Origin: a virus | Lineage: Duplodnaviria; Heunggongvirae; Uroviricota; Caudoviricetes | DNA: 51,681 nucleotides | Direction: 5' to 3' (one strand) | Virus record (IMG/VR): IMGVR_UViG_3300047392_000113 | Coordinates: 119,152-170,832 of that record | Shown: one piece after another, positions 4,469 to 40,497 of the stretch | Position numbering within the stretch: position 1 is the stretch's first letter | How the letters are laid out: each line of letters begins with the position of its first letter | Made by a program: the position numbers and the translations under genes | The notes under the pieces: model-generated | The model's input: the letters and a program-made list of their open reading frames with translations, nothing else | The model's database searches: none | What the model was told of the DNA's origin: nothing

Positions 4469-4894
4469 ATGTGGACTTATAATTCTAAAATCGTTGAAGA
4501 ACTTCCTGAAGACTGCGTTGGCTTTGTTTACTTAATTGTAAACAAGGTCAACAGTCGTATGTATATCGGGAAAAAACTAGCCAAGTTTTCTAAGACCACT
4601 TACAAGATGGTCACACAGAAAAATGGTGTAAAGAAAAGAAAGAAGATCAAGTCGAAAATCGACTCTGATTGGATGGATTATTACGGTTCAAGCATCGAAC
4701 TAAATAAAGATGTAGAATCTCTCGGGAAGGAAAACTTCAGCCGAGAGATTTTGTTTTTCTGCAAATCTAAGGCAGAGTGCTCTTATATTGAAGCACGAGA
4801 ACAATTCACAAGGAGAGTATTAGAATCAGACGACTACTATAATGGACAAATTTCCGTTAGAGTACATGGTTCTCATATTAAAAATAAGTTATGA
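4469..4894 (+). CDS. GIY-YIG-like nuclease-family protein
   Basis: GFVYLI-x8-YIGKK, YYGSS, YYNGQI; ATAAATA late-type motif at 4455-4461. Confidence 0.75.
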   Translation: MWTYNSKIVEELPEDCVGFVYLIVNKVNSRMYIGKKLAKFSKTTYKMVTQKNGVKKRKKIKSKIDSDWMDYYGSSIELNKDVESLGKENFSREILFFCKSKAECSYIEAREQFTRRVLESDDYYNGQISVRVHGSHIKNKL

Positions 4895-6572: not shown

Positions 6573-8381
6573 GTGTCTAGACTGGTTAGTCTTGTACTTG
6601 GTTTTGTACTGAGTCTCTCAGTAGCACACGCACAAGTATCGATACCTGGAACTAATCTTACTGTCACCTCAGTAAATGGTGGAACAGGAACTTTAGTGAC
6701 AGTGCCAATTTCTGGTGCTGCAGGATTGTCCGTAACTGTTGGTACTGGTTCTGCAGCAGTGCCACTGCAAGATATTCGAAACAACCCAGCAGCTGTAAAC
6801 ATTACAACGTATGATGATTCATACAATAATGTTCCACTAGGGTTTGACTTTCCATTCTTTGGTAAGACATTCAACAACTCTTGGGCTATGACCAATGGTT
6901 TGGTTACATTCCAAGATCCTAATCGTTCTGGTTTGGGTGGTGCTTGCTGCGAGGGTGTAGACTTAAGCAAGACAACTGATGCACGTTACAACTATACCAT
7001 CTACGGATTACACACCGATCTGTATTCTTGGAATGGTCAGAACCAATACTACCTTCGTGGCACAAACGAAATGACATATGGTTGGTATAACGTAAGTCAA
7101 TGCTGTAGTAGTCAAGGTGGTAACAGTTTCGAGATTAAGATTAACTCAGCTGGACTAGTTGATACTCGTGTTGCTGGCGCTATGGTAAACTGGAATAGAG
7201 TGACTTCTGGAATGGCAGGTGATCTTTCCAAGGGCGAGTTCTATCAATACTACCATGGTCAGGGATTGAACATAACTGCTGGTAGTTCGAGTATCTTTAG
7301 TTGGCAAGCATTGAGCGGAACTGGTGGCGACTTGTGTGCAGCTAACCCATTGTCTTCACCTACTTGTGCTGGATACCAAGCTGCTTATACTGTCCAACAA
7401 TGTACTATTAGTGCACTATACGACCCATCATGTCCAGGATACGCTGCAGCATTCTTTACTCAGCAATGTTCTATCAGTGCACTATACGACCCATCATGTC
7501 CAGGATACGCCACTGCATATCACGATCAACAATGCTCCATAAATGCGTTATATGCTACAGACTGTTCAGGTTACGAACAAGCATATCTAAACGCACAGTG
7601 TATTAAAGATTCTTTGTATTCTACAAAGTGTGAGGGGTACGCAACTGCTTATGCTATCAAGTATCTTGTTCCACTAGATTCATCAGTAACAACTGCTGTT
7701 AATGCTTCGCTATCAAACACTGCTGCTGTTAAAGCAAATGACCCAACAAATACAGTAGTGGCAACAAACACAGCAAGCACAACAATTAACACTGACGGTA
7801 CAGTATCAACTGGTGTTTCAAAAACTGGTGATACTAACGTTGATAAGGCAATCGCTCCTCCACCACCAACTGCTAACTCTAGTGCAGCACCTGCTGCTGT
7901 TGTTCAATTGGCACCTCCTCCACCACCAGCTGCACAAGCACCACAGGAAAGAAAACCTGAAGGTAAACCAGAAGGTGGTGACAGAGCTGCAGGTGGTCCA
8001 CCACAGATGGCGCAGGGGCAACAAGGTGGAGACTCCAAACCAGCGCAACCAACTGCTCGTCAAGAACTTCAAGCAAAGCGTGAAGCTAATGCAAGAGCAG
8101 AAGCTATTGAGAAGGGTAAGAACCTCGCCAACGAGATGGGTAAGGTTGCTGACATTGAATCTCAGAAACAACTACAGAACGTAGTTATCCAAGCAATGGG
8201 GTTTACTCCAGGATTTGACACATATGGTAAGGCAACAATACCTGACGTTGCTGGATACAAACCATACTCGGTTTATAACAATCAAAAGAATATTGATAAT
8301 CGTACCACACTAAGAATGTTTGGTGGTGCTGATCGACTACACAATGAAATGGTCGATTTACAATACAACAAGGAGAAGTAA
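6573..8381 (+). CDS. Large secreted/virion-type protein: nidogen-like N-region, Cys repeats, Pro-rich linker
   Basis: Signal peptide; LGFDFPFFGKTF..WAMTNG resembles NIDO-like domains; 22-aa Cys repeats; PPPP tracts. Confidence 0.65.
   Translation: MSRLVSLVLGFVLSLSVAHAQVSIPGTNLTVTSVNGGTGTLVTVPISGAAGLSVTVGTGSAAVPLQDIRNNPAAVNITTYDDSYNNVPLGFDFPFFGKTFNNSWAMTNGLVTFQDPNRSGLGGACCEGVDLSKTTDARYNYTIYGLHTDLYSWNGQNQYYLRGTNEMTYGWYNVSQCCSSQGGNSFEIKINSAGLVDTRVAGAMVNWNRVTSGMAGDLSKGEFYQYYHGQGLNITAGSSSIFSWQALSGTGGDLCAANPLSSPTCAGYQAAYTVQQCTISALYDPSCPGYAAAFFTQQCSISALYDPSCPGYATAYHDQQCSINALYATDCSGYEQAYLNAQCIKDSLYSTKCEGYATAYAIKYLVPLDSSVTTAVNASLSNTAAVKANDPTNTVVATNTASTTINTDGTVSTGVSKTGDTNVDKAIAPPPPTANSSAAPAAVVQLAPPPPPAAQAPQERKPEGKPEGGDRAAGGPPQMAQGQQGGDSKPAQPTARQELQAKREANARAEAIEKGKNLANEMGKVADIESQKQLQNVVIQAMGFTPGFDTYGKATIPDVAGYKPYSVYNNQKNIDNRTTLRMFGGADRLHNEMVDLQYNKEK
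7395..7658 (+). repeat. 66-bp (22-aa) intragenic tandem repeat, about 4 units
   Basis: QQCTISALYDPSCPGYAAAFFT / QQCSISALYDPSCPGYATAYHD / QQCSINALYATDCSGYEQAYLN / AQCIKDSLYSTKCEGYATAY; identical 35-nt core at 7410 and 7476. Confidence 0.9.
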
Positions 8382-19294: not shown

Positions 19295-19368
19295 TCCCGA
19301 GTAGTGTAGTGGTAACACACCAGACTTTGACTCTGTTATTGTAGGTTCGATTCCTACCTCGGGTGCCA
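19295..19368 (+). tRNA. tRNA-Gln(UUG)
   Basis: Cloverleaf, loop CT-TTG-AC, GTTCGA, CCA. Confidence 0.92.
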
Positions 19369-19450
19369 AACAAAAGCACATTATGTAACCTGAAGTGCGG
19401 TCACAGGACATCGAAAGGTGTGGTAGCCGTGATAGTGTGCCTTTGTTTGG
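19366..19450 (+). ncRNA. Unknown structured RNA closed by a stem starting at the tRNA CCA
   Basis: CCAAACAAA/TTTGTTTGG and GCACATTA/TAGTGTGC stems; CCTG/CAGG and ACATC-GAAA-GGTGT hairpins; possible pseudoknot. Confidence 0.55.
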
Positions 19451-19474
19451 TAACAATGTTCAAGGAGAACGACA

Positions 19475-19495
19475 ATGAAACGTGCTAAACGTTAG
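19475..19495 (+). CDS. Minigene MKRAKR (TAG stop)
   Basis: AAGGAG RBS, then ATG AAA CGT GCT AAA CGT TAG and a CTCAGA/TCTGAG hairpin. Confidence 0.5.
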   Translation: MKRAKR

Positions 19496-19555
19496 TGTCG
19501 CTCAGATCCCCCGTATGGTCTGAGTTGGCACGTAAAATCAAAACAATACGTACAA

Positions 19556-19631
19556 CCACTCGTGGCGTTAATGGTAGCGTACATGACTCTTAATCATCGA
19601 GGTCTGAGTTCGAATCTCAGCGAGTGGACCA
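19556..19631 (+). tRNA. tRNA-Lys(CUU)
   Basis: Loop CT-CTT-AA, CCA. Confidence 0.92.
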
Positions 19632-19634
19632 TAT

Positions 19635-19709
19635 GGGGGTATAACTTAACGGCTAAAGTAGCTGGCTTTTAACCAGTTAATCAGAGTTCGATTCTCTGTG
19701 CCCCTACCA
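19635..19709 (+). tRNA. tRNA-Lys(UUU)
   Basis: Loop CT-TTT-AA, CCA. Confidence 0.92.
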
Positions 19710-19791
19710 TATGAAAACACATTCTAAAACATAAAGATTTAGGATCATCAAGGGATACTTTCAGCACATCCCCGAGTGTGTTTCTATATGG
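19707..19791 (+). ncRNA. Structured RNA closed by a CCA-anchored stem, containing a mini CAGCA element
   Basis: CCATAT...ACACATTC / GAGTGTGT...ATATGG; internal GGGAT-ACTTT-CAGCA-C-ATCCC. Confidence 0.5.
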
Positions 19792-19796
19792 TTTAT

Positions 19797-19871
19797 GGAG
19801 TTGTTAGTTTAGTGGCAAAACCACGGGTTGTGATTCCGTTATCACGAGTTCGATTCTCGTACGACTCCCCA
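19797..19871 (+). tRNA. tRNA-His(GUG)
   Basis: Loop TT-GTG-AT; encoded G-1 and C73; CCA. Confidence 0.92.
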
Positions 19872-19884
19872 AAGAAAATTGTAT

Positions 19885-19960
19885 GCCGAAGTAGCTCATC
19901 AGGTAGAGCAGCAGACTGAAAATCTGTGTGTGGTTGGTTCGAGTCCAATCTTCGGTACCA
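19885..19960 (+). tRNA. tRNA-Phe(GAA)
   Basis: Loop CT-GAA-AA, CCA. Confidence 0.93.
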
Positions 19961-19967
19961 AAATTAT

Positions 19968-20041
19968 TCCCCGTTAGCTCAATGGTAGAGCACTCGACTG
20001 ATAATCGAGCGACAGTGGATCGTAACCACTACAGGGAACCA
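19968..20041 (+). tRNA. tRNA-Ile(GAU)
   Basis: Loop CT-GAT-AA; variant T-loop ATCGTAA; CCA. Confidence 0.88.
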
Positions 20042-20046
20042 AATGT

Positions 20047-20120
20047 ATCTCGCTGGTGTAATGGCAGCATGTCAGTCTCCAAAACTGTTGGTCGGGGTTC
20101 GAGTCCCTGGCGGGATGCCA
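20047..20120 (+). tRNA. tRNA-Trp(CCA)
   Basis: Loop CT-CCA-AA, CCA end. Confidence 0.92.
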
Positions 20121-20125
20121 AATAT

Positions 20126-20200
20126 GGTGATGTAGCATAATGGTAGTGCACCTCCTTCATACGGAGCAAAGTGGTAGTTCGACTCTACTCATCACCACCA
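20126..20200 (+). tRNA. tRNA-Met/Ile2(CAU)
   Basis: Loop TT-CAT-AC; Met versus lysidine-Ile not resolvable by eye. Confidence 0.85.
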
Positions 20201-20206
20201 AGTTTT

Positions 20207-20268
20207 AGGATTCTTTCAGCAAATTTAAAATTCAAACTTATATCTTGAAAAGAAAGCGAATCCTGTTG
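20207..20268 (+). ncRNA. CAGCAA/GUUG family RNA, copy A
   Basis: AGGATTC..CAGCAA..TTCAA/TTGAA hairpin..GAATCCT-GTTG. Confidence 0.7.
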
Positions 20269-20274
20269 TTTTAT

Positions 20275-20349
20275 GTCGCATTAGACTTCTGGTGAGGTCA
20301 TCACCCTTTCAAGGTGACCAGACGGGATCGTAACCCGTATGCGACTCCA
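20275..20349 (+). tRNA. tRNA-Glu(UUC)
   Basis: Loop CT-TTC-AA; T-loop ATCGTAA; CCA. Confidence 0.88.
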
Positions 20350-20354
20350 ATTAT

Positions 20355-20428
20355 CTCTGTGTAGCGTAGTGGTAGCGTTCGTGTTTTGGGGACATGAGGC
20401 GAAGGTTCGATTCCTTCTACGGAGACCA
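20355..20428 (+). tRNA. tRNA-Pro(UGG)
   Basis: Loop TT-TGG-GG, C1-G72, CCA. Confidence 0.88.
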
Positions 20429-20436
20429 AGTTTTAT

Positions 20437-20511
20437 GGGGGCAGTGCTGGGGCACGGCAGTGGCTTGCAACTTCTGCGACTAGATGGATTCGATTTCCAC
20501 GGCTTCCACCA
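20437..20511 (+). tRNA. Atypical tRNA-Ala(UGC)-like gene
   Basis: G3-U70-type acceptor, loop CT-TGC-AA, poor D and anticodon stems, CCA. Confidence 0.55.
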
Positions 20512-20518
20512 ATTTTAT

Positions 20519-20597
20519 TCCGAGAAACCCAAGCAAGGTGCAGGGGCTTGACTGTTAATCAATGGTTAGATGAGTTCGATTCTCATACTCGGAGCCA
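20519..20597 (+). tRNA. tRNA-Asn(GUU)
   Basis: Loop CT-GTT-AA, CCA. Confidence 0.85.
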
Positions 20598-20604
20598 ATT
20601 TTAT

Positions 20605-20680
20605 ACCGTAGAGTTCACCTGATGGTGATAACCGACTGTCTATCGGAGTGTGGCGGGTTTGATTCCCGTCTACGGTGCCA
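20605..20680 (+). tRNA. tRNA-Asp(GUC)
   Basis: Loop CT-GTC-TA; T-loop TTTGATT; CCA. Confidence 0.82.
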
Positions 20681-20683
20681 AGT

Positions 20684-20851
20684 TTTGTAAGTGTAGATGT
20701 TGAGAAAGCAAAGCCTCGAAAACTTTGTGAGCTAACGGTTCGAGTCCGACAACATGGCAGCTAGTAAGTAACGACTATTACTACGTACCTCTAACCCTAA
20801 CGTATACTGGGCGAAATGGTTGCGAATGAGCGAGGCGCAACTACTTACAAA
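20684..20851 (+). ncRNA. Unknown RNA with an internal tRNA-like T-arm
   Basis: Closing TTTGTAAGT/ACTTACAAA; ATGTTG/CAACAT stem enclosing CGG-TTCGAGT-CCG. Confidence 0.55.
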
Positions 20852-20900
20852 TTCAATCTCTCCCTGACATGCGGAGTACAATGTGATAAGTTGTATGTCA

Positions 20901-21012
20901 TCTTAATGAAGTGTATTGCGTGACGCCACGGTCGTAAGAGCCAGCTGGAACGAGAAGACAAAAAGCCTAAGCATGCAGATGGGCTCGCATGGCGCAGTAT
21001 ATTTCATTAAGA
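20901..21012 (+). ncRNA. Unknown RNA with a 20-bp closing stem
   Basis: TCTTAATGAAGTGTATTGCG pairs with CGCAGTATATTTCATTAAGA using three G-U pairs. Confidence 0.6.
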
Positions 21013-21016
21013 TTTT

Positions 21017-21145
21017 GGAGACATGATGTAATGGTAGCATAGCATAGCAAAAAATCAATTCTGTCTGTAGAATTGTTTCCGCAATACTAAAGCTCTAACT
21101 CTGTAAAAGTTCTTGTACGTGGTTCGAATCCCGTTGTCTCCACCA
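21017..21145 (+). tRNA. Oversized (129-nt) tRNA-like gene with an insertion; Tyr-type loop
   Basis: GGAGACA/TGTCTCC acceptor plus ACCA, D-arm, GGTTCGAATCC T-loop, AACT-CTGTAAA-AGTT; about 50 extra nt after the D-arm. Confidence 0.6.
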
Positions 21146-21150
21146 GTTTT

Positions 21151-21216
21151 AGGAAGGGTTCAGCAAATAAAAAAGCTAAACTTTTTGGTTGTCTAGCGAC
21201 AAAAACCTTCCTGTTG
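21151..21216 (+). ncRNA. CAGCAA/GUUG family RNA, copy B
   Basis: AGGAAGGGTT-CAGCAA..GCTA/TAGC hairpin..AACCTTCCT-GTTG. Confidence 0.7.
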
Positions 21217-21224
21217 TATTTTAT

Positions 21225-21299
21225 GCGCCCTTAGTAAAATGAATATTACACAACGCTACGAACGTTGAAGTGGGAGTTTGATTCTCTCAGGGCGTACCA
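21225..21299 (+). tRNA. tRNA-Arg(ACG)
   Basis: Loop CT-ACG-AA, CCA. Confidence 0.88.
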
Positions 21300-21305
21300 A
21301 GTTAT

Positions 21306-21391
21306 GGATGTGATAGAACAATGGCGTTCTAGTGGGCTGTAACCCCATGGTCTTTCGAGATAGGTAGGTTCGATCCCTACCACATCCACCA
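21306..21391 (+). tRNA. tRNA-Tyr(GUA)
   Basis: Loop CT-GTA-AC, long variable arm, CCA. Confidence 0.88.
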
Positions 21392-21397
21392 AGTTTT

Positions 21398-21507
21398 AGG
21401 TTAGGTTCTGCAAAAATAAAATTAGCTGGTTCGATTCCAGCATTATCCACCAAAACTCGAAAGAGACTCGGATGATGTGCCACGGTGGCAATCAAACTAA
21501 CCTGTTG
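21398..21507 (+). ncRNA. CAGCAA/GUUG family RNA, copy C, with a circularly permuted tRNA-like module (YrlA-like)
   Basis: AGGTTAG/CTAACCT-GTTG; CTGCAA variant; T-arm, then ATTATCC/GGATGAT stem, then TGCCAC/GTGGCA hairpin. Confidence 0.7.
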
Positions 21508-21513
21508 TTTAAT

Positions 21514-21603
21514 GGAAGCGTGTCCGAGCGGTTTAAGGAACTAGTCTAGAAAACTAGCGAGTCAGCAATGGCTCCGTGAGTTCGAATCTCACCGCTTCCA
21601 CCA
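21514..21603 (+). tRNA. tRNA-Ser(AGA)
   Basis: CTAGT-CTAGAAA-ACTAG; long variable arm; A73; CCA. Confidence 0.85.
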
Positions 21604-21608
21604 AATAT

Positions 21609-21700
21609 GGAGAGTAATGCAGCGGGGTTGGTCCTGCGACGTGCCTTGAAAACACGGTTCTCAGAAATGGGATGGGGTTCGACTCCTCTGCTCTCCGCCA
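21609..21700 (+). tRNA. tRNA-Ser(UGA)
   Basis: Loop CT-TGA-AA, long variable arm, G73, CCA. Confidence 0.85.
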
Positions 21701-21704
21701 GAAT

Positions 21705-21830
21705 TTAGAGATAGACGATGTGATGAGTCCCTTGTGCGCTAGTGCCCTATTCTTGAGCATGACACACCAGTAGCAACACAAGGTAGTTTAAACTCTCACA
21801 ATCGAGACAACTCCGACGAGTCCTTGAGAA
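21705..21830 (+). ncRNA. Unknown structured intergenic RNA
   Basis: TTAGAGA/TCTCTAA closing stem; CCTTGTG/CACAAGG internal stem. Confidence 0.4.
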
Positions 21831-21878
21831 AGATAGTTGGAACTCTCTAAACCTTTTTATTATTTTATGGAGAAACTT

Positions 21879-22445
21879 ATGCCAAGCGTATTTTTAACAA
21901 GTGACACACACTTTGGTCACGCTGGTGTGTGTAAGTTCTTGCGTGATGACGGTTCTAAATTGAGACCATGGGACAATCCAGAAGAAATGGACGAAGCCAT
22001 GATCAAGATGTGGAATGAAACTGTAAAGCCAACTGACAAGGTCTACCACTTAGGTGATGTAGTGATCAACCGTAAGGCTTTATCTACTTTACATCGGTTA
22101 AACGGTGATAAAGTTTTGATTAAAGGTAACCACGATATCTTTAGGTTGGAAGACTATACTCCGTTCTTCCGAGATATCCGCAGTTACCATGTGATGAATG
22201 GAGTGTTGTTGAGTCACATTCCTGTTCATCCTCAGCAATTGTATCGTTTTGGTTGTAACATCCATGGACACTTGCACAGCAACCGTGTTATGGTTACTGA
22301 CAAGTATGGTGTTACAAAAGTTGACCCACAGTACTACTCTGTATGCGTTGAGCAAACAGACTTCAGACCCATCTTGTTTGAGGACGTCTTGAAGAAGATT
22401 CAAGAGCAGGGTGGTACTGTGGGATTCAAAAACGGTAATCGTTAA
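21879..22445 (+). CDS. Calcineurin-like metallophosphoesterase
   Basis: SDTHFGH, HLGD, GNHD, LSHIP, HGHLH. Confidence 0.92.
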   Translation: MPSVFLTSDTHFGHAGVCKFLRDDGSKLRPWDNPEEMDEAMIKMWNETVKPTDKVYHLGDVVINRKALSTLHRLNGDKVLIKGNHDIFRLEDYTPFFRDIRSYHVMNGVLLSHIPVHPQQLYRFGCNIHGHLHSNRVMVTDKYGVTKVDPQYYSVCVEQTDFRPILFEDVLKKIQEQGGTVGFKNGNR

Positions 22446-22446
22446 T

Positions 22447-22537
22447 AGTGGGTTGGCAGAGTGGCGATTGCAGCAGTTTGCTAAACTGTAGACTCGAGAA
22501 ATCGGGTCCAAGGGTTCGAGTCCCTTACCCACTGCCA
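22447..22537 (+). tRNA. tRNA-Ser(GCU)
   Basis: Loop TT-GCT-AA, long variable arm, CCA. Confidence 0.92.
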
Positions 22538-22641
22538 GTGTTGTGTCGACGACTAATCTCGGTGCTTCCGTTCTCCCGAGTTAAAATAGTTGATTGTGGT
22601 TCTCCCCTGACGAGATAAAACTTTCAACAAGACGGAGCCAT

Positions 22642-22718
22642 GCGGATGTGATGGAATTGGTATACGTGCTTGACTCAAAATCAAGATTCTGCGAGTTCGA
22701 GTCTCGCCATCCGCACCA
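22642..22718 (+). tRNA. tRNA-Leu(CAA), short variable arm
   Basis: Loop CT-CAA-AA, A73, CCA. Confidence 0.9.
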
Positions 22719-22723
22719 GATTT

Positions 22724-22798
22724 GGGCATTTAGCATAATGGTAGTGCCGTCAACTCATAATTGATACGGTTCGAGTTCGAATCTCGGAGTGCCCACCA
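22724..22798 (+). tRNA. tRNA-Met/Ile2(CAU)
   Basis: Loop CT-CAT-AA, CCA. Confidence 0.88.
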
Positions 22799-22827
22799 TT
22801 GACTTGCAACGCTAATTGATGTATAAT
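22799..22827 (+). promoter_or_regulatory. sigma70 promoter
   Basis: TTGACT-N17-TATAAT. Confidence 0.85.
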
Positions 22828-22836
22828 AAAGGTTAT

Positions 22837-22913
22837 GCGGATGTGATGGAATTGGTATACGTATCGGACTTAAAATCCGAGTTTTGTGGGTTCGAGTCCC
22901 ACCATCCGCACCA
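22837..22913 (+). tRNA. tRNA-Leu(UAA), short variable arm
   Basis: Loop CT-TAA-AA, CCA. Confidence 0.9.
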
Positions 22914-22917
22914 GATT

Positions 22918-22993
22918 TCTCGCTTTCGTATAATGGATAATACAGTAGGCTTCTACCCTACGAATATGGGTTCGATTCCTGTAGGCGAGACCA
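22918..22993 (+). tRNA. tRNA-Arg(UCU)
   Basis: Loop CT-TCT-AC, CCA. Confidence 0.9.
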
Positions 22994-23572
22994 TTATTTT
23001 CTAATTCTTTTAATTGATGAAATTGGTATATGATGATAAGAAACATTTTCTTCAGAGAAAATTTGTGCGTCAGGATGAATTGATTTACAATTTTTATCTG
23101 GAGTACACTCACCGAATCTAATACAGATTTTCTGATTACAAGAGTTAATACACTCTATGAAGTTTCCACTATAATCTAGTATGTTTGCTTCAGTAAAGAT
23201 AGAATGTTCGATCTGCCAATTAACTCTTAGAGCATTGACGGTGTCAACCCTAGATTGTATTAATACTCGCTGGTTGTTTTCGTCAAAATCAAATAGTTGA
23301 TTGTTGTTGGCAAAAATGTCGTACCAATATTGTTTGACTTGTTCAGCAGTTTTAAAAAATTTGTGATGATGTATTTGTCTGCTAGATCCGTTTTCCAAAC
23401 GGTCTTGAGTTTTTGAGATGTTGTGAACACCTTTGTAGAAAAAATTTGTATACTTCAAATCAAATTCTTTCTGGAATTTTTCGAATCCTTCTAGATTATT
23501 TTTGTAATCATCGCTGTCTTCGAAAAATAAATTTTCTGTTTTGTTAACTCTAATAATCTCAAGAATGTACAT
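22994..23572 (-). CDS. AT-rich hypothetical protein with a Cys-rich C-terminus, antisense to the tRNA array
   Basis: 192-aa ORF fills the gap between tRNA-Arg and tRNA-Cys; GAGGA RBS on the minus strand. Confidence 0.7.
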   Translation of the reverse strand: MYILEIIRVNKTENLFFEDSDDYKNNLEGFEKFQKEFDLKYTNFFYKGVHNISKTQDRLENGSSRQIHHHKFFKTAEQVKQYWYDIFANNNQLFDFDENNQRVLIQSRVDTVNALRVNWQIEHSIFTEANILDYSGNFIECINSCNQKICIRFGECTPDKNCKSIHPDAQIFSEENVSYHHIPISSIKRIRK

Positions 23573-23588
23573 TCTTTTTCCTCTTTGT

Positions 23589-23664
23589 GTAGGCGTGTCC
23601 CGAATGGCTAGGGAAGTGATTGCAAACCACTTGTATGCAGGTTCGAGTCCTGTCGCCTACTCCA
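23589..23664 (+). tRNA. tRNA-Cys(GCA)
   Basis: Loop TT-GCA-AA, U73, CCA. Confidence 0.88.
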
Positions 23665-23676
23665 GTAAAACTTTAG

Positions 23677-23740
23677 TAACCTACAAAAGTTGAGGGTTAC
23701 TAAAAAACCTGTTGACATGTATTCATATTTAGTGTATAAT
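23677..23740 (+). promoter_or_regulatory. Stem-loop plus consensus sigma70 promoter
   Basis: AGTAACC/GGTTACT hairpin; TTGACA(23712)-N17-TATAAT(23735). Confidence 0.9.
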
Positions 23741-23775
23741 ATAGTCTCATTAGTTGATTATCTTAGTTCTAAAAT

Positions 23776-23849
23776 CCTCTCTAAGTCATTACGTGAAGTC
23801 GGATGCCTGAGGTGAATTTAGAGGTTGGCAGTCATCCACAAAACTGCCA
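23776..23849 (+). ncRNA. Two-hairpin RNA with a possible loop-loop pairing
   Basis: CCTCT..AGAGG stem with GGATG in the loop; TGGCAGT/ACTGCCA stem with CATCC in the loop. Confidence 0.45.
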
Positions 23850-23853
23850 CTTT

Positions 23854-23928
23854 ACTCGGTTCGTCTATCGGTTAGGACATCAGGTTTTCAACCTGAGAAG
23901 ACGAGTTCGACTCTCGTACCGAGTACCA
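23854..23928 (+). tRNA. tRNA-Glu(UUC)
   Basis: Loop TT-TTC-AA, CCA. Confidence 0.9.
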
Positions 23929-24130
23929 TTAGTAGTATCGTTTTGGAAAAATGCAGTGTTCACCTGCATAATGCACTGTCAATGTAATGGATTCTAGATT
24001 GAAGTTATACACAGTTGCGCCAAAGGAAATCAAGGTAAACAGTGGCCACTGTCCTTGTATAAGGTTTGGGCGATAAAAGCAAACGACAATAGGGTTATTG
24101 TTGTCCATAACGAAACGATACTACTAATGG
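23926..24130 (+). ncRNA. About 205-nt RNA closed by a perfect 18-bp stem starting at the tRNA CCA
   Basis: CCATTAGTAGTATCGTTT (23926) / AAACGATACTACTAATGG (24113-24130). Confidence 0.65.
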
Positions 24131-24137
24131 AAATTTT

Positions 24138-24230
24138 GGAGGCATTGTAGATATGGCGTGTTCTGCAGCGGACTGTAAATCCGTTCCCTCGTGGTAAACA
24201 ATGCTGGTTCGACTCCAGCTGCCTCCACCA
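24138..24230 (+). tRNA. tRNA-Tyr(GUA), enlarged D and variable arms
   Basis: Loop CT-GTA-AA, CCA. Confidence 0.8.
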
Positions 24231-24236
24231 AAATTT

Positions 24237-24311
24237 GGCTCGTTCGTATAATGGTTATTACGTCGGATTGTCTATCCGATCACGGGAGTTCGATCCTCCC
24301 ACGAGTCGCCA
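24237..24311 (+). tRNA. tRNA-Asp(GUC)
   Basis: Loop TT-GTC-TA, G73, CCA. Confidence 0.9.
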
Positions 24312-24323
24312 TAAATAAAAAAC

Positions 24324-24397
24324 GCCTCGGTAGTTTAATGGTAGAACGGCATCCTTACACGGTGCATACGGGAGTTCGATTCTCCAACGAGGTACCA
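24324..24397 (+). tRNA. tRNA-Val(UAC)
   Basis: Loop CT-TAC-AC, CCA. Confidence 0.9.
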
Positions 24398-24402
24398 GTT
24401 AT

Positions 24403-24479
24403 TGCGGGTTAGGGAAATGGTTATCCCGTCAGTCTCATAAGCTGAAGGTAGTTGGTTCGATTCCAGCACTCCGCAACCA
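24403..24479 (+). tRNA. tRNA-Met(CAU), possibly initiator-like
   Basis: Loop CT-CAT-AA; TGCGG acceptor; lacks the triple G-C anticodon stem. Confidence 0.8.
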
Positions 24480-24484
24480 GTTTT

Positions 24485-24551
24485 AGGATATTTGCAGCAA
24501 ACAAAAAAGCATTCAACTTGTAATTGAAAAACGCAAAAAGATATCCTGTTG
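24485..24551 (+). ncRNA. CAGCAA/GUUG family RNA, copy F, with an anticodon-stem-loop mimic
   Basis: AGGATAT..CAGCAA..TTCAA-CTTGTAA-TTGAA..ATATCCT-GTTG. Confidence 0.7.
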
Positions 24552-24557
24552 TATTTC

Positions 24558-24631
24558 GCCCTATTAGTATAATGGCATTACACCTGTTTTGTAATCAGGT
24601 TACGGCAGTTCGATTCTGTCATGGGGCACCA
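24558..24631 (+). tRNA. tRNA-Thr(UGU)
   Basis: Loop TT-TGT-AA, CCA. Confidence 0.9.
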
Positions 24632-24638
24632 AATTTAT

Positions 24639-24715
<77 letters not shown>

Positions 24716-24728
24716 TAAGTAGTATTAT

Positions 24729-24805
24729 GCGGATGTGATGGAATTGGTATACGTGTTGGTCTTAGAAGCCAAATTTTGTGAGTTCGAGTCTCACCATCCG
24801 CACCA
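24729..24805 (+). tRNA. tRNA-Leu(UAG), short variable arm
   Basis: Loop CT-TAG-AA, CCA. Confidence 0.9.
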
Positions 24806-24811
24806 TTTTAT

Positions 24812-33551: not shown

Positions 33552-33627
33552 GCGGGTATAGCTCAGTTGGTAGAGCACTTCCTTGCCAAGGAAGATGTCG
33601 AGAGTTCGAGTCTCTTTGCCCGCTCCA
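33552..33627 (+). tRNA. tRNA-Gly(GCC)
   Basis: Loop TT-GCC-AA, CCA. Confidence 0.95.
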
Positions 33628-39049: not shown

Positions 39050-40497
39050 TGTTTTTTGATCAATATAAAGAGTTTGTTGATTCTGATATTAGAAAGGATA
39101 GACCATTAACCAGAGTCACCTCTGAATCATTAAGTAAAAGATGTCAAGCTCTTCTACCTTCTTGGTTGATCAAGGATAAAACTGTTCTTGATCTTGGTCA
39201 TTGCTATGGTGCATTTGGTCAGTGGTGTTTGGCAAACGGAGCTAAACATTATACTGGCGTAGACATCCAAAAATTATTTTGTGATAAGTCTAAAGAACTT
39301 CTATCAAAATACTGGAGTGACGAACAATTTAGCATTGAACAAGAAGATGTACTGGCATTCTTACAAAAAACACCAAGCCAGAAATATGATATTATTGTAG
39401 TATCTGGTGTTATGCACTGTTATTCTAATCCTATATCTTTTGTTGAGAGTGTATGTAACTCTGCCAATGAGGTTGTTATTATAGAAACATTAGAAGCTGA
39501 TGAATCTAATGGTGTTCCATCTATTCAGTTTAAAATTTTTAATATGGTCTCTGATGATATCAATTCACCATATCAAGGATGGACAGCTTTAGTTGGATAT
39601 AATGCACTTCGTTCAATAATGGAAGAGAATAACTTCGAGATATATGGACAAAGAATATTCCCCGAGAAGATTGAAAATAGTCATGATGCATATAATGATG
39701 ATATTACCGCTGTCAGTCCTCTCAAAAGCAAACCGAACCGTTATATGGTTCGTTACAAAAGAACCAGAAGAAAAATTAAAAAATCTTTACAATATAACAT
39801 TTTGAATAATGTTCATAGTAGAAATACTGCTTATGTTGGTATGTCTCACTCTAAAATTATTAAGGGTGAAACTTGGAAGTTTGATGATAATGTTGCTTCT
39901 AGATTCCAAGAGGAAGCTAACTCTAATATCCCAGATTATCATCGAGTTATTGAAATGTGTCAACAGATAGCCGATAGTAAGTTTGGTAAACATTCAGTTA
40001 TTGTTGATGTTGGGTCTGCATTAGGTTATACTGTAGAGTCATTCCTAACTAAAGGATACGATAATGTATACGGAGTAGAATCCAGTGAAGCGATGATGAG
40101 TAACTCATTGCATAGAGATCGTATCATTTTCAGTGAATCGTTTCCTATTATGCCAGTTGATTTTGTAATGGCTAACTGGACTCTACACTTTGTGAATGAG
40201 AGAAAGAAATACATACAAGATGTATATGATAATCTTAACTCTGGTGGCGTGTTTGTTTTAACAGATAAAACACCCCAATCAGATATTATAAAAGAGATGT
40301 ACTATGACTTCAAGAGATCTCATGGAGTCACAGATGAATACATATACGAAAAAGAAAAGAAGCTGCAGGGATATATGAATTTGTTACCTGTGCAGTGGTA
40401 TCTAGATACATTGAAAGAAGTTGGGTTTAGTGACATCCAGATAGTCAATAGTAAGTATGGGTTTGTAACCTTTTATTGTGAGAAGAATTATGCCTGA
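39046..40497 (+). CDS. Tandem SAM-methyltransferase fusion; C-terminal domain CmoA-like
   Basis: N: VLDLGHCYG; C: WKFDDNVA.RF...IPDY, DVGSALG, NWTLHFV, LNSGGVFVLTDK. Confidence 0.82.
   Translation: MMFFDQYKEFVDSDIRKDRPLTRVTSESLSKRCQALLPSWLIKDKTVLDLGHCYGAFGQWCLANGAKHYTGVDIQKLFCDKSKELLSKYWSDEQFSIEQEDVLAFLQKTPSQKYDIIVVSGVMHCYSNPISFVESVCNSANEVVIIETLEADESNGVPSIQFKIFNMVSDDINSPYQGWTALVGYNALRSIMEENNFEIYGQRIFPEKIENSHDAYNDDITAVSPLKSKPNRYMVRYKRTRRKIKKSLQYNILNNVHSRNTAYVGMSHSKIIKGETWKFDDNVASRFQEEANSNIPDYHRVIEMCQQIADSKFGKHSVIVDVGSALGYTVESFLTKGYDNVYGVESSEAMMSNSLHRDRIIFSESFPIMPVDFVMANWTLHFVNERKKYIQDVYDNLNSGGVFVLTDKTPQSDIIKEMYYDFKRSHGVTDEYIYEKEKKLQGYMNLLPVQWYLDTLKEVGFSDIQIVNSKYGFVTFYCEKNYA

Follow-up and report, generated by a model that had tools for sequence, protein, structure and literature searches.

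Ro60 and its Y RNAs form a conserved RNA-surveillance system, most familiar from human autoimmunity and a small number of bacteria. The Y RNA YrlA, known from bacteria and mycobacteriophages, combines a stem bound by Ro60 (Rsr) with a domain of three stem-loops, T, acceptor-like and D (Chen et al. 2014, PMC4201824). In Mycobacterium smegmatis, YrlA is cut by RNase P and CCA-tailed in vivo, and its 7-bp acceptor has been linked to RNase P cleavage; YrlA of Salmonella Typhimurium and Yrn1 of Deinococcus radiodurans are not cleaved (PMC4201824). Here we describe an RNA gene, which we call copy C, in 51,681 nucleotides of viral DNA (hereafter the window). The window comprises the final 51.7 kb of IMG/VR virus record IMGVR_UViG_3300047392_000113, which is complete, 170.8 kb long and bears terminal repeats. 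Copy C (21398-21508, 111 nt) lies between a tRNA-Tyr gene (21306-21391) and a tRNA-Ser gene (21514-21603); these and all other window features given below are on the plus strand. Its closest known system is YrlA (RF02553; PMC4201824; structure preprint 10.1101/312249), especially that of M. smegmatis.

Phage Y-like RNAs and tRNA-mimicking YrlA RNAs are already known. For Thermus phage phiLo, the phiLo Ro60 has been reported to bind the phage Y-like RNAs Yrl1 and Yrl2 in vitro (PMC12135203; PDB 9KOP, 9L5Y). The PhageMaP preprint reports that gp130, a Ro60-like protein of Felix O1-like phage Bas63, counteracts the ppl defence system; its authors surmised, without identifying them, that Y RNAs of gp130 are among the "tRNA genes" (10.1101/2024.10.10.617714). 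Copy C belongs to a second, apparently undescribed set of Y-like RNAs, which travels with a divergent Ro60-fold protein (DUF2828/PHROG 850). In a literature search of incomplete coverage we found no paper describing this family, which we call CAGCAA-stem RNAs, or a DUF2828-type partner. New here are a well-sampled subtype with an invariant encoded CCA, strong covariation for every helix, and sister phages with both circular permutations of one RNA in corresponding places. Our best explanation, processing included, is that copy C is the gene of a Y-RNA-like small phage RNA built from two modules, and we consider this explanation likely.

Results

Copy C contains a tRNA-like domain in circularly permuted order. 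The elements that an initial annotation of this DNA had listed are all present at 21398-21508, both in the sequence and in the fold: the minimum free energy structure (-28.6 kcal/mol) consists of exactly these helices, as does the centroid. Inside a 7-bp terminal stem, the order is T-arm, 7-bp acceptor helix plus ACCA, variable capping loop and D-like hairpin. The 5′ strand of the stem, AGGUUAG (21398-21404), pairs with CUAACCU (21497-21503), a pairing backed by covariation, and beside it stands the single-stranded motif GUU-CUGCAA (21405-21416), the family signature, which reads CAGCAA in most copies. The T-arm (21425-21441) has five base pairs, GCUGG/CCAGC, and the loop UUCGAUU. It is followed by the 3′ strand of the acceptor-like helix, AUUAUCC (21442-21448), and directly 3′ of that strand by ACCA (21449-21452), a discriminator-like base plus CCA. 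The capping loop (21453-21469) is variable and contains a CUC-GAAA-GAG hairpin (21456-21465). Fold and covariation then place the 5′ strand of the acceptor-like helix, GGAUGAU, at 21470-21476, ahead of a reduced D-like hairpin (21478-21490) with the core GCC/ACGGU/GGC and a conserved GG in the loop. The 3′ tail, GUUGU plus a spacer (21504-21513), runs to the first base of tRNA-Ser (21514).

The D-like hairpin had been read as TGCCAC/GTGGCA. There is indeed a hairpin, but six base pairs would leave a loop of a single nucleotide; the fold has 5 bp with a CGG loop, and covariation backs the three inner pairs only, GCC/GGC, around a 5-nt loop that includes the GG. The folds of copy C have no anticodon arm, and between the D-like arm and the T-arm there is only the 7-bp stem with the CAGCAA motif. 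Neither ARAGORN nor the Rfam tRNA model calls a tRNA on copy C, and ARAGORN finds no tmRNA in the window. The Rfam tRNA and tmRNA models match copy C in the T-arm only (7-8 bits; 7.3 bits for the permuted-tmRNA model), and this T-arm coincides with the T-arm positions of the tmRNA models. Copy C has no tag reading frame. Its folding z-score is modest (-1.9 to -2.3), and thermodynamics alone is weak evidence.

Copy C is more than a chance fold because its homologues pair and covary. With the downstream phosphoesterase gene (21879-22445, PHROG 547) as bait, we obtained 80 related IMG/VR loci (labels beginning with L), nine of which have an orthologue of copy C close to the phosphoesterase gene; further homologues emerged when IMG/VR was scanned for a sequence pattern. 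From 21 sequences we derived a covariance model, R1, which gives copy C 114 bits and yields 30 matches, of which 24 are distinct. In the R1 alignment, 99.2% of pair cells are standard compared with 75% in shuffles, and none of 500 shuffles reaches this value. Compensatory changes on both sides are seen in 15 of 22 pairs, the covariation score is 0.609 (0.145 in shuffles), and sliding the 3′ partners by 1-3 columns lowers pairing to 33-49%. The closing stem and the T-arm are 100% paired, with 4/7 and 3/5 pairs covarying, the acceptor-like helix is 99.4% paired (5/7 covary) and the D-like core 95.7% (3/3 covary). This alignment was fitted to the model; a MAFFT alignment, used as an independent check, is 96.1% paired overall and 97-100% in the three large helices, the D-like helix being weaker (77.8%).

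The acceptor stem takes nine different sequences among the 24 distinct homologues. The T-loop is UUCGAYU in all of them, and all 14 sequence variants of the D-like arm keep GG in the loop. The permuted order of T-arm, loop-closed acceptor and D-like arm that the initial annotation had put forward is real: it covaries across the 24 homologues, and they keep it. The structure of copy C and its conservation are confirmed. Across the same homologues, the three acceptor pairs nearest the T-arm are nearly fixed (21444/21474 is a U-G wobble in 23/24, 21443/21475 is U-A in 23/24 and 21442/21476 is A-U in 19/24), and the four outer pairs covary freely. The near-fixed inner pairs could be a recognition element.

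In 24/24 distinct homologues CCA is encoded, separated from the 7-bp acceptor strand by a single base. The base before CCA is A in 20, G in three and U in one. The capping loop measures 7-21 nt including NCCA, or 3-17 nt beyond it. A GAAA hairpin within the loop, with stems CUC/GAG, GCC/GGC or GUC/GAC, is present in 11 of the 24 homologues and absent from 13; hence, the hairpin is optional and the CCA invariant. It had been proposed that the internal ACCA could become an end after cleavage. This idea is strengthened by the invariant CCA, by sibling RNAs that are encoded with the same end already open, and by the precedent of M. smegmatis YrlA (PMC4201824). Cleavage at the internal CCA itself is something we infer, and we find it plausible.

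Copy C shares its frame with a family of RNAs, five copies of which lie in the window and are all found by R1. The frame consists of an AGGNNNN stem, a 3-nt linker, CAGCAA or CUGCAA, an interior, the complementary strand and GUUGU; GUUGU or GUUAU stands 3′ of the closing stem in nearly all members. Copy C was assigned to the family by 5′-AG(G/A)NNNN, a 3-nt linker, (C/U)NGCAA and a complementary strand ending in (C/U)CU and followed by GUU, all of which it has. Three siblings enclose a simple hairpin (20207-20269, R1 30.3 bits; 21151-21217, 31.9 bits; 24485-24552, 34.1 bits). A long sibling (31016-31191, 42.9 bits) ends 45 nt upstream of the gene for a Ro60-like protein, and at about 30976-31004 the sequence can be read as a TTGACT..TATAAT pair.

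Among the related loci, the frame screen picks out 117 stretches. Their interiors include simple hairpins, permuted tRNA domains of the copy C type, and longer forms like the copy before the Ro60-like gene. In the canonical permuted type, a variable-arm-like hairpin and a T-arm are followed by an acceptor with a closing loop of 3-8 nt and by a textbook D-arm; L008:3373-3487 is of this type, and its acceptor sequence is identical to that of copy C. A CAGC/GUUG pseudoknot, which the YrlA model forces in a sibling, was rejected on geometric reasoning: it is incompatible with a 7-bp stem and a 3-nt linker without a spacer, and would at most be an alternative conformer.

Relatives also encode the RNA in tRNA order. 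In L008 (3778-3874) and L009, a tRNA-order version of copy C lies just upstream of the phosphoesterase gene, the usual slot of copy C. It runs from the acceptor 5′ strand through a D-like hairpin, the CAGCAA stem with a GUAUU loop, an identical T-arm and the acceptor 3′ strand to a GCCA end. Further tRNA-order RNAs, in L108, L114, L137, L158, L182 and L183, have an open NCCA end and a CAGCAA stem capped by a 4-5-nt loop, and L183 carries both circular permutations. After rotation, the halves of the tRNA-order RNAs are about 65-83% identical to copy C.

Other arrangements of the same parts occur as well. A third wiring (for example L007:3877-3978, L008:3880-3981 and L014:3205-3307) has a body in tRNA order, in which the family stem replaces the acceptor; the body comprises a D-arm, an anticodon-like arm with a 7-nt loop and a T-arm, and the "anticodon" readings vary (UCU, UUU, UUC, GAA). 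The Rfam tRNA model scores L008:3880-3981 at 35 bits. In the window itself, 21017-21148 is tRNA-shaped, with the acceptor GGAGACA/UGUCUCC, an ACCA end and the T-loop UUCGAAU, and carries the closed stem module in tRNA order. The module there has a CCGCAA motif; ARAGORN makes no call, and the only Rfam match is to tmRNA at 10 bits. Two tRNAs of Synechococcus phage BUCT-ZZ01 have a similar insert (L006:4583-4697 and 4711-4827).

Cultured phages have CAGCAA-stem RNAs beside DUF2828 Ro60-like genes, with the same stem, motif and tail as copy C; the family is absent from Rfam. Permuted tRNA domains are found in E. coli phage Alf5 (NC_031082.1, about 25088-25217), Mycobacterium phage LeBron (HM152763.1, about 40270-40395) and Cronobacter phage S13 (NC_028773.1, about 132961-133099, with ACCA in the acceptor loop). 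Sinorhizobium phage phiN3 also has a CAGCAA-stem RNA with a permuted tRNA domain. Compared with these RNAs, an invariant NCCA and a reduced D-arm set copy C and its 23 distinct homologues apart as a subtype.

The candidate protein partner is encoded at 31237-32673 (478 aa). It matches Pfam DUF2828 and DUF7788/vWA and PHROG 850, "RNA-binding protein", has no match to Pfam TROVE or to NCBIfam, and finds nothing at E<=1 in a sequence search against PDB chains. The initial annotation had called it Ro-like, and the fold bears this out. In a Foldseek search with the AlphaFold2 model (pLDDT 92.7), the PDB matches ranked 1-13 are all Ro60, Rsr or TROVE proteins (E 8e-9 to 5e-6; TM 0.63/0.58; 511-569 aligned columns). 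Identity to the Ro60 chains in the structural alignment is 12-15%. As modelled, the product folds like Ro60, with a ring of HEAT repeats and a vWA domain, and the likeness is confined to the fold.

This protein has homologues in 706 deposited phage records, among them Felix O1-like, Listeria, Staphylococcus and Mycobacterium phages, and 6,212 cluster representatives of a protein library match it at E<=0.001. Mycobacteriophage records label the homologues "Ro-like RNA binding protein". From its position before tRNA genes, Bas63 gp130 looks like a member of the DUF2828-type family. In BUCT-ZZ01, the protein is 48% identical to that of the window, and three CAGCAA-stem RNAs lie directly upstream of its gene. 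Eight phages were checked for such RNAs, BUCT-ZZ01, Alf5 and six chosen for host diversity. Seven of them have CAGCAA-stem RNAs on the gene strand within 4 kb of the DUF2828 gene. Matches per locus number 1-6 on that strand, compared with 0-1 on the opposite strand and 0.02-0.24 after shuffling. Of the six matches in Alf5, two fall within coding genes and are probably due to chance. In Aeromonas phage Aeh1, the screen finds no CAGCAA-stem RNA within 4 kb of the gene, a negative limited by the strictness of the screen. Overall, genes of this protein family have CAGCAA-stem RNAs beside them in Felix O1-like, Cronobacter, Listeria, Mycobacterium, Sinorhizobium, Vibrio and cyanobacterial phages. 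Copy C is probably a partner of the phage Ro60-like protein; we infer binding from this co-occurrence.

Several other features were seen near Ro60-like genes. The Ro60-like gene of Listeria phage LP-064 is preceded, at a distance of 1 kb, by a ROOL match (L193:2471-3022) of 87 bits, below the gathering score of 99. Three CAGCAA-stem RNAs stand in the interval, and an RtcB-like RNA ligase gene follows 1.3 kb downstream. Oversized annotated "tRNAs" (121, 113 and 122 nt; one labelled tRNA-OTHER) occur in S13 (L192:5896-6138) and Aeh1 (L191:8193-8314), and may be tRNA-order carriers of the stem module. In Alf5, a minus-strand "hypothetical protein" (L189:7363-7686) overlaps plus-strand CAGCAA-stem RNAs at 7376-7446 and 7462-7591 and is probably a miscall.

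Copy C sits in a tRNA array. ARAGORN finds 33 tRNA genes in the window, all on the plus strand and all encoding CCA, 32 of them within 19295-26278 and one at 33552. At gathering score, Rfam matches in the whole window are tRNAs only. The array is preceded by three promoter-like sites, and between 19300 and 22600 no plus-strand terminator-like site was seen. Among deposited phages, megablast of 2 kb around copy C matches one tRNA-Ser only, and blastn of copy C itself finds no match and no near copy in any genome.

ARAGORN missed some tRNA-like genes in the array. The Rfam tRNA model scores 20519-20594 at 32.3 bits (cut-off 29), whereas 20604-20677 and 21609-21696 reach about 30 bits with tRNA-Sec, below the cut-off of 47; the latter has a long extra arm. 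From there to the phosphoesterase gene extend about 180 non-coding nucleotides (21700-21878) with neither the family motif nor any match, a slot that family RNAs occupy in many relatives. The last tRNA of the array (26204-26278) has the anticodon CUA (amber-reading, labelled Pyl by ARAGORN); the same is found in L008 and L009.

Discussion

Our results suggest that copy C encodes a small RNA of two modules. The first, the 7-bp terminal stem with the CUGCAA/CAGCAA motif and the GUUGU tail, is common to the five copies in the window and would be the docking site for the Ro60-like protein. The second would be a circularly permuted tRNA mimic. Its T-arm would stack on the 7-bp acceptor helix, and the GG of the D-like hairpin would dock on the T-loop, giving the acceptor/T-arm limb plus the elbow of a tRNA.

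Copy C is probably cut from the transcript of the tRNA array by tRNA-processing enzymes; RNase P cleavage at the start of tRNA-Ser (21514) would set its 3′ end. A further RNase P cut before the acceptor 5′ strand (before 21470) could then be followed by exonucleolytic trimming to CCA (21452). We propose these last two steps because NCCA is invariant while the rest of the loop varies. This would yield an RNA of two pieces that the two 7-bp helices hold together and whose 3′ end is tRNA-like. Tethered to a Ro60-like ring, it would form a particle exposing an acceptor end like that of a tRNA, either to enzymes that bind tRNAs or to tRNA-attacking host factors.

One could go further and argue that the nicked two-piece mimic has a genuine CCA end that is charged or extended by tRNA enzymes or serves as bait for host defence, and that the Ro60-like particle acts in anti-defence. 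This would fit the report that Bas63 gp130 counters ppl. We offer the idea very tentatively and regard it as unlikely in this full form.

Several points weigh against the two-module explanation as a whole. Our view of copy C comes from its sequence, its fold and its homologues. The Ro60-like gene lies 9.7 kb downstream on the same strand. The D-like arm, at 3-5 bp and with a 3-6-nt loop, is so reduced that a tRNA-like elbow is no more than plausible. RF02553, the Rfam YrlA model that the initial annotation had suggested searching with, gives no match to copy C at its gathering score (69 bits) or at E<=10, whether in 2 kb or in 136 nt. Four freshwater metatranscriptome runs do contain copy C, one as an exact 171-nt contig (window 21349-21519) and three as a relative with the order tRNA-Ser, copy C, phosphoesterase, but these are contigs, which give neither ends nor strand, and DNA carry-over is possible. 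Most canonical siblings have short closed loops without CCA, so cleavage is not family-wide. The CCA could also be conserved for another reason, for example pairing with UGG, which is frequent in the D-like loop.

The last two points lead to the main alternative for the cleavage step, in which copy C is a Y-like tRNA mimic whose acceptor loop is never opened, as in Salmonella YrlA, and the CCA is a protein contact or takes part in tertiary pairing. The uncleaved RNAs of S. Typhimurium and D. radiodurans (PMC4201824) speak for it, as do the 3-8-nt closed loops of the canonical siblings and the UGG in most D-like loops, which could pair with CCA. Some loops of the copy C type are moreover 7-8 nt long, leaving a leader of only 3-4 nt. 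However, the CCA stands exactly one base after the 7-bp helix, as in every tRNA of the phage, and relatives encode the same RNA with its end open. Several D-like loops have AGG or CGG instead of UGG, and a 7-bp acceptor is the very feature tied to RNase P cleavage (PMC4201824). On balance, we think a closed loop possible but rather unlikely.

A tRNA-shaped spacer is a simpler proposal: copy C would merely be a processing signal for cutting the array transcript, with no later function. tRNA-like minihelices can act as cleavage signals, and copy C does sit among tRNA genes at tRNA-like spacing. A spacer would need neither the CAGCAA motif nor the GUUGU tail nor a covarying terminal stem, though, and the flanking tRNAs already provide cleavage sites. 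The frame also recurs beside the Ro60-like gene in unrelated phages, including loci without an array (LeBron, BUCT-ZZ01), and we therefore judge the spacer to be quite improbable. Still less can be said for a working gene, either a circularly permuted tRNA gene, as in the red alga Cyanidioschyzon, or a two-piece tmRNA (permuted ssrA). The gene order and the conserved CCA agree with it. The missing anticodon arm, in whose place tRNA-order relatives have a stem capped by a 4-5-nt loop, the T-arm-only matches in place of an ARAGORN or Rfam call, and the lack of a tag frame make it extremely improbable. We give next to no credence to a functionless, decayed remnant that joins the 3′ half of one tRNA gene to the 5′ part of its neighbour. 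Chen et al. (PMC4201824) caution that tRNA dimers mimic the T-then-D order, and the weak hits of the YrlA model in this genome are tRNA pairs. Yet in copy C the upstream 3′ strand and the downstream 5′ strand remain paired through nine stem sequences, covariation extends to all four helices, and the conserved stem and motif surround the element in every case.

Apart from its bearing on the two-module explanation, the locus documents a natural circular permutation between a tRNA-shaped and a Y-shaped RNA. If the two-piece mimic is real, then the presence of both permutations in sister phages would show how such mimics arise from tRNA genes. The copy C subtype and its tRNA-order sister RNAs are a clear test case for tRNA-end enzymes acting on such RNAs. 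Since counterparts exist in cultured phages (Cronobacter phage S13 with the ACCA type, Felix O1-like phages of E. coli such as Alf5 with the closed type, and mycobacteriophage LeBron), these ideas can be tested at the bench.

Comparison with known systems

In permuted tRNA and tmRNA genes, the acceptor 5′ strand comes after the T-arm, the acceptor 3′ strand and CCA, and tRNA-end processing removes the spacer in between. Copy C likewise has T-arm, acceptor 3′ strand and CCA ahead of the acceptor 5′ strand, but it differs in lacking both a tag frame and an anticodon arm.

Another likeness is to the Class I RNAs of dictyostelid amoebae, in which a short covarying stem likewise joins the 5′ and 3′ ends, a conserved motif directly follows its 5′ strand, the interior varies and the ends are conserved (AAG..., ...CUGU) (RF01414; PMC7919456). 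Class I RNAs are 42-65 nt long, eukaryotic, and bind an RRM protein (PMC7919456). One sibling RNA gets a sub-threshold RF01414 match (22.9 bits; gathering score 41.5) and copy C gets none; E-value searches around copy C return neither a Y_RNA nor a Class I match. We regard the Class I likeness as a lead.

In the phiLo system, too, phage Y-like RNAs adjoin a Ro60-fold gene, and the phiLo Ro60, a more distant protein than those of the DUF2828 type, takes ranks 6, 12 and 13 among the structural matches of the window protein, at about 15% sequence identity. The phiLo RNAs were chosen by a CGAA motif and a stem-bulge-stem, and the accessible part of that report does not describe a tRNA-like domain (PMC12135203).

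YrlA remains the nearest comparison, and "as in YrlA", the wording of the initial annotation, holds for the architecture and does not extend to the motif or to the Rfam model. The single-stranded motif of copy C, GUU-CUGCAA (CAGCAA in siblings), differs from the GNCGAA(N0-1)G of YrlA; RF02553 aligns the CAGCAA of a sibling to its gGCgaA positions, and the two motifs may be related without being the same. Copy C has a reduced D-arm, its CCA is encoded rather than added, and its DUF2828/DUF7788 partner falls outside Pfam TROVE. It is also embedded in a phage tRNA array, 9.7 kb from the protein gene, where the criterion used for YrlA is about 4 kb. Against the whole phage genome, RF02553 hits only junctions of neighbouring tRNAs (10-18 bits), false positives of the kind described in PMC4201824. 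With canonical siblings, it aligns over the full length at scores below gathering: 33.9 bits for L008:3373-3487 (E 3e-6, in the order T, acceptor, D), 39.8 bits for the LeBron RNA and 35.9 bits for that of phiN3. Copy C and YrlA have in common a terminal stem that encloses T-arm, acceptor-like stem-loop and D-arm in that order, which is the order of the RF02553 consensus and of the description in PMC4201824, as well as the lack of an anticodon arm, a strand shared with the gene for a Ro60-fold protein, and several sibling RNAs per locus. Copy C lies outside the YrlA family by the Rfam model and is YrlA-like by architecture.

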